DNA of 11,850 nucleotides from a virus (IMGVR_UViG_2623620491_000015:1-11850); one strand, 5' to 3'. Counted from the first letter of the stretch, positions 334 to 8,687 are shown. The notes: generated by a model from the sequence alone, not told the origin. Numbers and translations: made by a program.

Positions 334-826
334 TTTAATACCTCGCAAATTCGCCGAAACATTCATCCGCTTTATTTGCATATACTTTATGAGCTTCCTT
401 TGGGTCATCGTAAAACCCAAGATTAACTTTCCTCTTGTTGATTACGATTTGCGCCCTCCATTTTCTTGATTTCTTATCCCATGAAACGCCTTTATATCCT
501 GATTTGTTATTTGCCTTTTTGTTTACGTTTTGGATGTTTTGAGATCGAGTTGCCAATCTAAGATTTGCTATACGATTGTCATCCCTAACGAGATTTATGT
601 GGTCGATATCACTTTTTGGTAGACTGCCATTCATATAGAGCCACGCCAGCCTGTGTGCCTTATAAAGTTTTCCATCGACTTTTATTACCCAGTAGCCTTC
701 GCTACTCTTATGCCCTGCGATATCCCCAGCATTCATTCTCTGGCATTTCTTTACTTTCCATGTGAATTTCCCTGTTAACTCATCGTAGAGAAGGACTTCT
801 TTTAGTCTCTGCTGAGTTATTTGATT
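232..826 (-). mobile_element. Homing-endonuclease cassette inserted in the 5' part of ninB (HNH-AP2 coding segment plus a replacement ninB 5' end)
   Basis: NinB-like sequence sits on both sides: residues 1-32 at 922..827 and from residue ~35 at 231 downward. The intervening segment is visibly AT-rich compared with flanking DNA and encodes the endonuclease domains plus a new ninB start with its own SD. Boundaries are approximate. Confidence 0.5.
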
Positions 827-922
827 GATTGGTTTGGTTGGGTCTGGAAGGATTTGCTGTACTGCGTGAATAGCGTTCTGCTGATGTGCTGGAGATCGAA
901 TTTCAAAGGTTAGTTTTTTCAT
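335..922 (-). CDS. HNH (HNH_3) + AP2-domain homing endonuclease, fused in frame to the first 32 residues of lambda-type NinB
   Basis: Track ORF 335..940 starts at TTG; the ATG at 922 (MKKLTFEI...) has a purine-rich SD (GGGAGAGGGAAG) just upstream. Motif DIDHINLVRDDNRIANLRLATRSQN is HNH_3-like; SGYKGVSWDKKSRKWRAQIVINKRKVNLGFYDDPKEAHKVYANKA is AP2-like. The first 32 aa read like the NinB N-terminus. Confidence 0.8.
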   Translation of the reverse strand: MKKLTFEIRSPAHQQNAIHAVQQILPDPTKPINQITQQRLKEVLLYDELTGKFTWKVKKCQRMNAGDIAGHKSSEGYWVIKVDGKLYKAHRLAWLYMNGSLPKSDIDHINLVRDDNRIANLRLATRSQNIQNVNKKANNKSGYKGVSWDKKSRKWRAQIVINKRKVNLGFYDDPKEAHKVYANKADECFGEFARY

Positions 923-936
923 GACTTCCCTCTCCC

Positions 937-970
937 CCAAATAAAAAGGCCTGCGATTACCAGCAGGCCT
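937..970 (-). terminator. tR2-like intrinsic terminator between helicase and ninB region
   Basis: Perfect 8-bp inverted repeat aggcctgc / gcaggcct (947-954, 963-970) with an 8-nt loop. On the minus strand it is followed by TTTTATTTGG. Confidence 0.6.
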
Positions 971-995: not shown

Positions 996-2372
996 TCATA
1001 CGTCAGCCCCTTGTGCATATCGTCTGCCACGCGCAGCAGGTGCATTTGATGCTGTGCAAATCTGTCTGGCTTCATCCTGGTCACATGCAACAAAGTGTCC
1101 GTTACAGAACCGCTGGTAAACCGTACCAAGCGAGCCAAAACGGTTTTTCGTCACGATGATTTCAGCAAATGGCGCGGCGCTACTGTTCTCGTCATATACC
1201 GCTTCCCGATAGAGCATGATGATTGAGTCTGCGTCCTGTTCAATGCTTCCTGAATCACGCAAATCTGCGTTTGTCGGGCGTTTGTTTGGTCGCTTCTCAA
1301 CATCGCGCGAAAGCTGACTTAGGGAGATAACAGGCGTTTTCAGGTCTTTCGCCATCGCCTTCAGGCTTCCGGAGATGTGAGCAATTGCTAGGTCGTTGCG
1401 GTCTGCTTTCGGCTTCTCAATCAGGCCAAGATAATCCGCCATGATTAGAGACAGGTTTGGATTTTCCTGTTTATGCCGTTCTGCGATTGAGCGTATTTCT
1501 TCGACCGATAACCGCGAGGCATCGACTACCCATACATCCAAATCTGCAAGCTGACTCATGCCGTTAGCAACACGCGCCCAGCCTTCGTCATCCATCGATG
1601 CAGGATTTCGCAGTACGCTAACCGACATCCTCCCGGCGTTGGCAATGCTTCGCTCTGCAATCTGCAATGCGCTCATTTCCATTGAGAAAATCAATACCCC
1701 GCGCCGGACGTCAGAACCAGGAATAACGCGGCTTGCAACGCCTTCGGCAATCTTCAGCGCCAGTTCGGTTTTCCCCATACCAGGACGAGCAGCGATTATC
1801 ACCAGGTCTTCTGCGTTCATCCCTCCGGTGATGGCATCAAGTTCTTCGATTCCGGTCTTCAGGGTATCGGACTCTTCTCCGTTCCTCAGACGCCTGTCAA
1901 GCGTGTCAGTGTAGTCAGTGATGATTTCCCCTAACCGTACAGGTTTAACCTCGTCACGGGGCTTTCTGATAGCTGAGAGACGTTTTACAAGTTCATCCAT
2001 CGCCTGACTCGATGCGTCGATGGTTCCGCTCTGAATTGGTTCACGCATTTCATCCATGATTTCCAGCACCAGACGGCGGTGATAGTTATCCGCGACCATT
2101 CCGGCATATCCCTTCAGGTTTGCGGCACTCGGGCAGTTTTTGCTGGTCATCAGGATTGACGTGAAATGCTCCTCTCCGCATTCCTCAGCAACCATCAGCG
2201 CGTCGATTAGGTTTCTGTTTCGCGCCTGCTTGCGGATAACCTCGAAGGCTTTCCGGTAGAGCGGAATTGAAAACGCTTCCGGCTCCAGCGTTGCCAGAAC
2301 GTCACTGGCGGTTGGAGTTAATCCACCAATCAGCAAGCCACCGATAACGCTCGCTTCGATATCCTGTCTCAT
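996..2372 (-). CDS. Replicative DNA helicase, DnaB family (P22 gp12-like)
   Basis: 458-aa ORF with Walker A ([15 protein letters not shown]) and DnaB-type RecA-fold motifs ([29 protein letters not shown]). ATG at 2372 overlaps the upstream gene's stop (ATGA). Confidence 0.9.
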
Positions 2373-3316
2373 GCAATCCCCCTGTCTGCAAACTTCCCTT
2401 CCCGTACTCCCGTTAACGAATCTTCCCTCAGCAGGTAATCAAAATCTGCCGTCCAGCCCGTGTCGTTGTCTCCGAAGTAAAACGGCTTGGCCTGATGCAC
2501 AAACGCCCTGACATACGCTCTGAAACCGTCCACGTTTGGCGTTTTCAGTTGCGGAATGATTTTCTTCAGGCGACGTTTGCGTTTCTCGTTGACCGCAACA
2601 GCGTGTGGCAGTCTGTCACCGACTTCGGTGTTGTAGGCATTCAGGAAGGATTCATAGTCGATTCGTTCTGCCTTGCGACGTTCAGGTTTAACCTGCCCAT
2701 CGCCTCCCCCATTGGGGGGTAGGGGGGTATTATTTATATTCTTGTTAATACCTTCTTGTTCATGATGTGCGGTTGTTTGTGCGGCTTCATGTGCGCTTTC
2801 ATGTGCGGCATGTACGCTGAAAGCCGCGCCATTACTGGCTTCGTCATGTGCGGCGTCATGTGCGGTTGTTTGTGCGGCTTCATGTGCGGGTGAATTGTCC
2901 ATTTTTTGAGCATATTCATGGTAATTTGTGATGGTGATCACACGACCTTTTTGCTTCTCTCCATCAATGGTGATCATCCCCTCTTTCACAAAAACCTGAA
3001 GCATCCGCTCAACCTGATCACGGCTTGCCGGCTTGCCATGCCTGTCGCATAACTGAAGACCTAAATCAGCTGCTGTCACAACCAGTTGACCGGGTTGCAG
3101 ATGCCATTCATGACCTTTGAAATTCGCTTTGTATGGCTTTCTGGCGGCATTCAGGAGAAGGTTTTCCCACAGGGTGCGAAGATAAACATCTTTCGCCCAT
3201 GACTGTTTCAGAATGCTCCGGTACAACGGAATGTAACCAGTTTTCTGGTTCTCCATCCTGTTGCTCCTGCGCTCGTGTGCGGCGCTGAAATCGTAGATTT
3301 TTGCTGTGTTGCTCAT
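2369..3316 (-). CDS. Replication initiator protein (lambda O / P22 gp18-like) with a repetitive Ala/His-rich linker
   Basis: 315-aa ORF. The N-terminus [10 protein letters not shown] resembles lambda O (MTNTAKILNF). It sits immediately upstream of, and translationally coupled to, the helicase gene. The internal repeat region coincides with the iteron-like DNA repeats. Confidence 0.8.
2766..2894. repeat. Eight copies of a 12-bp direct repeat TGTGCGGnnnnn in two clusters of four; candidate ori iterons
   Basis: Units at 2766, 2778, 2790, 2802 and 2847, 2859, 2871, 2883 (tgtgcggttgtt, tgtgcggcttca, tgtgcgctttca, ...). A G-rich then AT-rich stretch follows at 2710-2760 (ggggggtaggggggtattatttatattcttgttaata). 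This is the same arrangement as ori-lambda inside O. Confidence 0.55.
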
Positions 3317-3602: not shown

Positions 3603-3669
3603 GTTGGATGTTGTTAAAATTCCATTTGTATTTGATCAGAACGCTCGGTTGCCGCCGGGCGTTTTTTAT
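3603..3669 (+). ncRNA. oop: oop-like antisense RNA overlapping the 3' end of cII
   Basis: Plus-strand TATAAT at 3591-3596. The 3' end CAGAACGCTCGGTTGCCGCCGGGCGTTTTTTATT matches the lambda oop terminator as I recall it. It is antisense to the last ~55 nt of cII. The 5' end is an estimate. Confidence 0.6.
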
Positions 3670-3910
3670 TGGTGAGTCCATCAAGCGCATACTTAAAAGC
3701 CCTGCTAATCGGACTGATATCTGATGCCATTCCGAAAGCACACAAGACCGAGGCAATAAATCTCCAGTCCGTTCTGCTTATCTTCGATTCATGACAGCCA
3801 ATCATCTTTGCCAGACCGCGCTGGGTAAGTGTTGACAGGTTGATGAGTAAATCGGTTTCTGCGCGATCAACATCGCGCTGTGATAGTTTGCTGTAACTTG
3901 TTTGTTCCAT
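3614..3910 (-). CDS. cII: Transcriptional activator CII
   Basis: 98 aa. The C-terminus LTNKKRPAATERSDQIQMEF and the central ...ESKISR... match lambda CII. Position between cro and the replication genes fits. Confidence 0.9.
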   Translation of the reverse strand: MEQTSYSKLSQRDVDRAETDLLINLSTLTQRGLAKMIGCHESKISRTDWRFIASVLCAFGMASDISPISRAFKYALDGLTNKKRPAATERSDQIQMEF

Positions 3911-8180: not shown

Positions 8181-8687
8181 ATGGCAAGCAGAGGCGTAAA
8201 TAAGGTGATTATCCTTGGTCGGGTAGGACAAGACCCGGAAGTTCGATACTCACCATCAGGTACAGCGTTCGCTAACCTGACAATAGCCACGTCAGAACAA
8301 TGGCGAGATAAAAATACTGGCGAGCAAAAGGAATTGACTGAATGGCATCGTGTTGCTGTATCCGGGAAACTGGCTGAGGTCGTGGGGCAGTATGTGAAAA
8401 AAGGTGATCAGATTTATTTCGAGGGAATGCTGAGAACCAGAAAGTGGAAAGACCAGTCAGGGCAAGACCGTTACACAACCGAGGTTCATGTCGGAATTAA
8501 TGGCGTGATGCAAATGCTTGGCGGCATTGGCGACAGCAAACAACAAGCAGCCAGCAGGCAATCACAGAAGCCACAGCAGCAATCATCACCAGCACAACAC
8601 AACGAACCTCCGATGGATTTTGACGACGATATACCCTTTGCACCAGTAACTCTCCCCTTCCCTCGTCACGCTATTCACGCAATTTAA
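8181..8687 (+). CDS. ssb: Single-stranded DNA-binding protein with a 15-aa extension after the DDDIPF motif
   Basis: OB-fold N-terminus ([23 protein letters not shown]...), Q/S-rich linker, then MDFDDDIPF followed by [15 protein letters not shown] before the stop. Confidence 0.85.

Follow-up and report, generated by a model that had tools for sequence, protein, structure and literature searches.

Where does replication of this prophage begin? The stretch analysed here, IMGVR_UViG_2623620491_000015:1-11850 (hereafter the window; 11,850 bp from a lambdoid, P22-like prophage), carries an O-like replication initiator gene whose middle part holds an array of short direct repeats. We propose, with a probability of roughly 85%, that positions 2703-2890 are the replication origin of the prophage and that this origin lies inside the prophage's own initiator gene, in the part that codes for the linker (Table 1; coordinates are those of the plus strand unless the gene strand is named). 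The initial annotation had read the array and a neighbouring AT-rich tract as an ori-lambda arrangement, and this reading is supported by the Phage_rep_O family of the initiator, by the position of the array, which is that of the P22 and HK97 iterons, by constraint acting at the level of the DNA, and by the co-inheritance of the repeats with the N-terminal domain (N-domain) of the initiator. The family of the initiator, the position of the array, the AT tract and the modular co-inheritance all place the putative origin in the ori-lambda kind; it also fits the short-repeat layout of the phage L type.

How is the array built? On the plus strand, exact copies of TGTGCGG start at 2766, 2778, 2802, 2847, 2859, 2871 and 2883, and the single variant unit of the array, TGTGCGC, starts at 2790. 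The initial annotation had described eight units in two clusters of four, and apart from that one variant the description is exact: the spacing is 12 bp throughout, the clusters occupy 2762-2809 and 2843-2890, and a shift of 93 bp brings units 6-8 onto units 1-3 with 89% identity. It was also right that the unit is 12 rather than 19 bp long, to which we add that the units are without dyad symmetry of the lambda type. The entire window contains 10 exact copies of TGTGCGG, 7 of them within 124 bp; in 200 dinucleotide shuffles the count was 1.50 +/- 1.17 with a largest value of 5, and 0 of the 200 reached 10. A G-rich and then an AT-rich stretch had been noted beside the repeats, and both are present, but the order along the gene is instead four units, the 33-bp spacer, four units, the AT tract (2761 to 2728) and the C-rich element (2727 to 2703). 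Within the protein the units correspond to residues 143-185 of 315, and translation bears out the claim that the repeats encode an Ala/His-rich linker (residues 142-185).

Table 1. Features of the proposed origin and of the genes that surround it (positions in the window).
Feature	Position	Strand	Description and basis
O-like replication initiator gene	2369..3316	-	315 amino acids; open reading frame list, translation, Pfam
N-terminal winged-helix (winged helix-turn-helix) domain, predicted origin-binding	2894..3316	-	residues 1-141; predicted recognition helix residues 99-111
Iteron cluster 1	2843..2890	-	four 12-bp direct repeats CCCGCACATGAA, GCCGCACAAACA, ACCGCACATGAC, GCCGCACATGAC
Cluster 1, codon-aligned units (gene strand)	2879-2890, 2867-2878, 2855-2866, 2843-2854	-	
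Spacer	2810..2842	-	33 bp, GAAGCCAGTAATGGCGCGGCTTTCAGCGTACAT, encodes an 11-residue peptide
Iteron cluster 2	2762..2809	-	four 12-bp direct repeats GCCGCACATGAA, AGCGCACATGAA, GCCGCACAAACA, ACCGCACATCAT
Cluster 2, codon-aligned units (gene strand)	2798-2809, 2786-2797, 2774-2785, 2762-2773	-	
AT-rich tract, candidate DNA-unwinding element	2728..2761	-	GAACAAGAAGGTATTAACAAGAATATAAATAATA, 34 bp
C-rich element	2703..2727	-	CCCCCCTACCCCCCAATGGGGGAGG on the coding strand; alignment
DnaB-like replicative helicase gene	996..2372	-	next gene downstream of the initiator gene; DnaB_C 9.3e-78, DnaB 1.8e-13 (Pfam)

Several other candidate elements were considered and set aside. A ninth TGTGCGG, at 3276-3282 where the 5' part of the initiator gene has codons for S-A-A-H-E, was tried as an autoregulatory site, and the core was found there in 0 of 16 relatives; lying outside the array, this copy is probably due to chance. 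The spacer sequence GGCGCGG was tried as an inverted copy of the core and rejected, as it is unchanged in the lineage whose core carries an A to G change. Within the array we saw no credible internal promoter or terminator, the lone terminator-like match (2779-2796) consisting of two adjacent units. DnaA boxes (TTWTNCACA) with one mismatch number 30 in the window against 25 expected, and none falls within 2700-2900.

Is it the DNA or the peptide that is constrained? Conservation was scored on 112 units from 17 diverse sequences (the window and 16 relatives), and codon choice on 14 non-redundant genomes. Along the codon-aligned 12-mer the three positions of each codon carry 0.14, 1.48 and 1.93 bits (codon 1), 1.93, 1.48 and 1.03 bits (codon 2), 2.0, 1.82 and 1.26 bits (codon 3), and 0.66, 0.83 and 0.09 bits (codon 4), the core nCCGCRCAT having 1.0-2.0 bits per position. 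At codon 1 the first base is free, and the residue is Pro, Ala, Thr, Ser, Gly or Cys, while the third base is C in 111 of the 112 units; this is the reverse of the pattern of protein-coding sequence. When the residue at codon 1 is Pro, then the codon is CCC (30/30; background in the same genes, 21%); when it is Ala, then the codon is GCC (28/28; background 35%); and when it is Thr, then the codon is ACC (17/17; background 39%). Similarly, Ala at codon 2 is encoded by GCA or GCG only (85/85), against a background in which GCC and GCT make up 58%, and His at codon 3 is CAT in 73 units and CAC in 3, against a background of 52 to 48.

Variation among close relatives was scored on 77 IMG/VR loci (64 distinct genes, 98-100% identical). 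Across the 64 variants the mean minor-allele frequency is 0.0046 in the core and 0.033 at the non-core positions of the same units, a difference of about seven-fold. The N-domain is polymorphic at 28 of 363 sites and the AT tract (2726-2761) at 0 of 36, and no part of the gene is more polymorphic at the protein level than the linker. Likewise, where sequences have the same amino acid, the identity of their codons is 0.52 for the N-domain, 0.80 for the spacer and 0.92 for the AT tract. In the core and the AT tract, selection acts on the DNA and not on the peptide; for the most part the Ala/His-rich peptide is carried along by the repeats in the DNA. To judge from these sequence comparisons, the array is a linker, hypervariable at the protein level, within which an 8-bp word of the DNA is kept from change.

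The AT tract itself is 79% A+T and asymmetric between the strands, the coding strand having 20 A and 7 T. Positions 2727-2757 (31 bp, essentially the AT tract) are the least stable 31-mer in the gene and the second least stable in the 11.85 kb, with a nearest-neighbour free energy of -30.9 against a mean of -41.5 (standard deviation 3.3). In E. coli genomes, homology to HK97-type sequence ends at about 2745, inside the tract, which marks a mosaic junction. The adjoining C-rich element has its homologue at the right-hand end of the origin regions of P22 and HK97, and the P22 counterpart lies inside the annotated rep_origin.

Residues 20-132 of the initiator match Pfam Phage_rep_O (PF04492; E 3.6e-15, 56.7 bits against a cut-off of 28.7), the family defined by the N-terminal domain of lambda O. 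The AlphaFold2 model of residues 1-141, for which the alignment was shallow and composed mostly of truncated or frameshifted homologous fragments, has a predicted local distance difference test score of about 85-90 for residues 31-135 and shows a helix at 44-58, a three-stranded sheet, helices at 82-88 and 99-111, and a beta-hairpin wing at 115-129. The model points to a winged-helix domain, an assignment of fold class only. A sequence search of the PDB with the whole initiator gave 0 matches at E ≤ 1.

Do the repeats travel with this domain? In tblastn searches the initiator splits in two: residues 3-143 occur in Klebsiella and Yersinia phages together with a lambda-O-like C-terminal half, followed by a lambda-P-like gene, and residues 190-315 recur in HK97- and P22-type phages. 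A genome scan yielded 14 more prophages, with 69-83% identity in the N-domain, from Superficieibacter, Trabulsiella, Brenneria, Sodalis, Buttiauxella, Cedecea and further genera, so that the domain is shared across many genera of the Enterobacterales. The 17 diverse sequences all have the same layout, namely 3+3 or 4+4 units of 12 bp with the core CCGC(A/G)CA, a 33-nt spacer and the tract CATCATGAACAAGAAGGTAATAACAAGAATA. Divergence starts only past CATCATGAACAAGAAGGTAATAACAAGAATA, with at least three unrelated types of C-terminal domain (C-domain), each then followed by a lambda-P-like or a DnaB-like gene. The alignments thus portray the N-domain, the repeats and the AT tract as one inherited module, and the C-domain with its partner gene as another. 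Phages that combine this C-domain with a different N-domain have different repeats, and when the N-domain is diverged (about 46% identity, in the sequences L004 and L005), then the layout is the same but the 12-bp units are others (GTCGAAGG... and CGATGAAC...). We note that the L005 record (OR850084.1, 'Staphylococcus phage SA 1298 Kay', UNVERIFIED_ORG, 2.7 kb), with 3+3 units of the CGATGAAC type, encodes an enterobacterial-type O-like initiator, whose C-domain is nearly identical to that of the window, and a DnaB-like helicase; almost certainly, the record is wrongly labelled or stems from contamination.

The initial annotation had pointed to functional relatives that keep the initiator and lack the repeats as the case to look for. 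The repeats are present in all 17 diverse sequences and in all 77 close ones, which favours the ori-lambda reading; phages that carry the module include CUS-3, HF4s, JEP4 and Kapi1, which are functional. Repeat copy number, compared across related prophages, is constant in the 77 close loci, where no change in array length occurs, and in other genera it is 3+3 or 4+4. Finally, when all cores read CCGCGCA and not CCGCACA, as they do in one lineage, then His replaces Asp at residue 100, where the predicted recognition helix makes its first turn, and Ser or Thr replaces Ala at residue 82. As a signal of specificity the covariation of D100H with the core is suggestive.

The layout extends well beyond these genera. 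A phmmer scan of 1.84 billion representative proteins (representatives at 50%-identity clustering, E ≤ 1e-3), with the N-domain and linker as query, gave 470 representatives, of which 50 full-length, diverse ones were examined and 49 could be analysed. The linker is periodic at 4, 8 or 12 residues in 42 of the 49 (binomial p = 6e-19), and in 34 the lag from cluster to cluster is 4n+11 residues, which equals a 33-nt spacer (p = 6e-13). Distant representatives have 2 to 5 repeats per cluster, and the repeated peptides differ wholly among them (AHxx, PSDx, GTLN, VTxE, EQxN, DYxA and others). Closer to the window, at least 80% of the region's length is matched in 271 of 5426 complete E. coli genomes, and 15 of the 15 full-coverage E. 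coli matches listed are single ungapped pieces of 311 bp. The window thus belongs to a large, barely described family whose members share a plan of the origin. One distant member, P0103, apparently has three repeat clusters and two copies of an EPSAGAA spacer motif, which suggests that the unit of cluster plus spacer can itself duplicate.

The spacer is exactly 33 nt long in 17 of the 17 diverse sequences, and its core CCAGYAATGRCGCGGCT, with the peptide S-N-G/D-A-A, is kept in phage L, L004 and L005 despite their other iterons. Among close variants it is the most polymorphic segment (15 of 33 sites). The conserved spacer could be a site for a host factor, a bend or a peptide motif. A side observation concerns its end, 2810-2818, which reads AGCGTACAT in the window and AGCGCACAT in 16 of the 64 close variants; the latter comes near to a copy of the core, but at 9 bp from unit 5 it is not in phase with the array, and it is not conserved in other genera. 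We tentatively suggest, as a possibility we would not favour over its negation, that the family follows a fixed plan of n sites of 12 bp, an invariant 33-bp spacer that carries a conserved motif, n further sites and the AT tract, in which single winged-helix domains would bind head-to-tail and dimers on palindromes would play no part, the spacer would be a separate element organising two half-complexes around the element that unwinds, and the diversity of peptides would record changes in specificity.

Could the repeats be merely a low-complexity Ala/His-rich linker, flexible or metal-binding, that arose by in-frame duplication and whose DNA has no function? In-frame translation of the array does give (A/T/P)-A-H-x repeats, and the linker's standing as the most polymorphic part of the protein is what a tolerant spacer would show. 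However, synonymous third positions of the core stay fixed while the amino acid of the codon changes, the non-core sites of the same units are about seven-fold more polymorphic, and distant members keep the 12-nt period and the two clusters with completely different peptides. In phage L, moreover, the 11-nt unit is read in three frames, and therefore the DNA is what repeats. A functionless linker is, on this evidence, very unlikely. The variation in copy number, between 3+3 and 4+4 in other genera and from 2 to 5 per cluster among distant representatives, might instead suggest a slippage-prone contingency locus that modulates the initiator, but the 77 close relatives have zero length changes, the full-coverage E. 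coli matches listed are ungapped, and the units are too imperfect for efficient slippage, which leaves this explanation with hardly any probability at all.

It is also conceivable that the array binds the initiator as a control element, acting by titration, handcuffing, autoregulation of O at transcription or translation, or incompatibility, and that initiation takes place elsewhere. Plasmid iteron arrays serve initiation and copy control alike, ectopic copies of the lambda origin inhibit the cognate phage (PMC4488673, PMC3349717), strong binding in Stx phages occurs at only four of six iterons (PMC7466680), and of the two separate clusters perhaps just one is needed for initiation. We nevertheless consider a purely regulatory array improbable, because it adjoins the least stable DNA of the gene, a tract that is invariant in the population, because its position is exactly that of the lambda, P22 and HK97 origins, and because no other comparable structure of repeats and AT tract was seen in the replication module. 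A host factor or another phage protein might bind the repeats in place of the O-like initiator, and the spacer motif, conserved regardless of the type of iteron, hints at a second factor; yet the repeat sequence changes with the N-domain and stays when only the C-domain changes, and DnaA boxes are not enriched, so that we regard binding by a protein other than the initiator as exceedingly unlikely.

What, then, weighs against an origin at 2703-2890 that works in the manner of ori-lambda? The inverted arms of the lambda, P22 and HK97 iterons are 7-8 nt long, whereas the best arm within the units here is 4 nt, which is the level of shuffled sequence, and all units run head-to-tail. With dyad symmetry absent, the mode in which a lambda O dimer binds a palindrome is therefore not simply transferable. 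The rep_origin annotated in P22 gene 18 is itself assigned 'by similarity', and in the literature we found no footprint, mini-replicon or initiation-mapping study of this type of replicon. A hairpin in the C-rich element scores at shuffle level (z-scores -0.3 and -0.7), and we claim no structural role for it. All top Foldseek matches in the PDB are winged-helix regulators (MarR, CRP, CodY, ArsR/RosR), but with weak E-values of 7e-3 and above. The genomes with the G-type core form one clade in the tree, which makes the covariation with residue 100 a single event. Finally, concerted evolution could add to the homogeneity of the core within a genome, although it would leave the divergence of the non-core positions of the same units unexplained.

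How might the proposed origin work? We model binding, unwinding, helicase loading, stoichiometry and the geometry of the complex on lambda O at ori-lambda and on P22 gp18/gp12. The initiator, which is probably dimeric, would be made from the early-right operon, and its N-terminal winged-helix domain (residues ~30-135) would read the ~8-bp core CCGCRCAT in eight head-to-tail sites, four on either side of the 33-bp spacer. The resulting multi-protein complex, or 'O-some', would stress the adjacent 34-bp A-rich tract and lead to its melting. The C-terminal domain (residues ~190-315, of the P22 gp18/HK97 O type) could then load the phage DnaB-like helicase on the opened DNA, after which host primase and polymerase III would take over.

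The genes around the array fit this setting. The order of initiator and helicase genes is that of P22 (18-12) and HK97 (O-P), and the DnaB-like helicase is the predicted partner of the C-domain of the initiator. Upstream of the initiator gene lie cII-, cro-, cI(S24)- and N-like genes; the window is the immunity and replication region of a lambdoid prophage that resembles P22. CUS-3, HF4s, JEP4 and many Stx2a-converting phages have an initiator gene 98-99% identical to the one here, and the 311 bp at 2650-2960 are 100% identical to E. coli PEC408. Translation of the initiator likely starts at the ATG at 3316, because all relatives conserve the N-terminal extension (...RSNRMENQK), which aligns with the N-terminus of lambda O (MTNTAKILNF). 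The JEP4 record begins the protein at an internal Met (MENQK, 295 residues); the region concerned is 3256-3316 here. Many database entries for the initiator are 'partial', with 146-211 residues, and end in or just past the array. The likely reason is that other prophages in the same genome have this C-domain as well, so that short-read assemblies break at the mosaic junction.

Further afield in the window, a strong terminator-like hairpin with a T-run (3638-3665, plus strand) is found in antisense orientation at the 3' end of the minus-strand cII-like gene (3614-3910), in the position of the oop antisense RNA terminator annotated in P22. Just downstream of the helicase gene, an open reading frame of 201 amino acids (335-940, minus strand) has HNH_3 and AP2 domains and is homing-endonuclease-like; in JEP4 its site holds ninB. 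An imperfect 21-bp tandem repeat (2.3 copies, 8548-8596) lies within the 3' part of the SSB gene (8181-8687).

A likely origin is now placed for a module that about 5% of complete E. coli genomes contain (271/5426). Many Stx2a-converting phages have it too, as do CUS-3, HF4s, JEP4 and Kapi1, and in these phages the origin is unannotated. Replication of Stx phages drives toxin production, and the origin and its specificity determinant are therefore relevant to that field; they could also be used in building compatible phage-derived replicons. More generally, the array is a natural case of binding sites written through a coding sequence, in which selection on the sites shapes a protein linker, and origin specificity (N-domain and sites) appears to be shuffled at the AT tract separately from helicase recruitment (C-domain and partner gene).

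How does the proposed origin compare with known systems? The P22 and HK97 initiators share its C-domain: the last 126 residues are 97.6% identical to HK97 O and 58-60% identical to P22 gp18. Also shared are the C-rich element CCCCC(T)TACCCCC.AA.GGGGG after the AT tract, an array in the iteron position and a DnaB-like gene downstream. However, the N-domains of P22 and HK97 are unrelated in sequence and their AT-tract sequence is different. Their iterons are four units of ~20 bp with dyad symmetry (TTACC..GGTAA and TTAGCC..GGCTAA), spaced 20, 24 and 23 bp apart and followed by ACACAAAAGACAATATACAAAAGACAATAAATACAAATA and CCCCCTTACCCCCTAA.GGGGG.

Closer in layout is gene 18 of Salmonella phage L (ST64T type, MW013503 rep_origin), which has three short repeats, a spacer of ~33 nt with CCAGTAATGACGCGGCT, three more repeats and AAACAATAATATAAATAATA. 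Phage L and the window have in common the spacer sequence CCAGTAATG(G/A)CGCGGCT and, after the second cluster, AACAA.AATATAAATAATA. Phage L gp18, which falls below the Pfam threshold for Phage_rep_O, aligns with the window's initiator in BLASTP over its full length and collinearly at 22% identity (E 4e-10, a distant relationship), and its gene is likewise followed by a DnaB-like gene. The unit of phage L is 11 bp (TGTCCAACGGA) and runs through three frames, whereas here it is 12 bp (CCGCACATGAAG-like), in one frame and arranged 4+4. The phage L repeats have been proposed as an origin and described as 'six imprecise repeats', the two-cluster layout and its conservation across the family not being described (PMC8022706); beyond phage L we found no literature on this exact type of iteron.

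The theta plasmid iteron origins (pSC101, R6K, F, P1) also combine direct, non-palindromic repeats with an AT-rich element and winged-helix initiators (PMC4980987). Plasmid iterons, however, are ~17-22 bp long, lie about two helical turns apart outside the rep gene and are bound by Rep monomers with two winged-helix domains, while the prophage has a Phage_rep_O initiator with no Rep_3 match in Pfam and sites 12 bp apart inside the gene.

Finally, in lambda itself the annotation places four O-binding iterons midway along gene O, and behind them come an A-rich tract and an inverted repeat; a model of this origin has been presented (PMC7466680), and it is bound by the 162 N-terminal residues of O (PMC2629481). 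The window resembles this arrangement in its Phage_rep_O N-domain, in the repeats within the linker-coding middle of the initiator gene, in the A-rich tract on the promoter-distal side, and in the pairing of the N-domain with the repeats and of the C-domain with a partner for helicase delivery. That partner, however, is a DnaB-like helicase here and the P loader in lambda, and the initiator proteins align weakly (E 0.004). The lambda iterons are four in number, 18-19 bp long, dyad-symmetric and spaced 20-24 bp apart, whereas the window has eight direct 12-bp units in two clusters; of the features of the ori-lambda kind, the set of about four dyad-symmetric iterons of 18-20 bp is the one absent here. 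The 12-bp spacing is close to the distance between half-sites within one lambda-type iteron, so that the number of protein contacts on eight units may equal that on four palindromic iterons. The lambda paradigm is not overturned by this origin; two features may interest specialists, namely the spacer, with its invariant length of 33 bp and its conserved motif, and the geometry of binding on 12-bp direct repeats.

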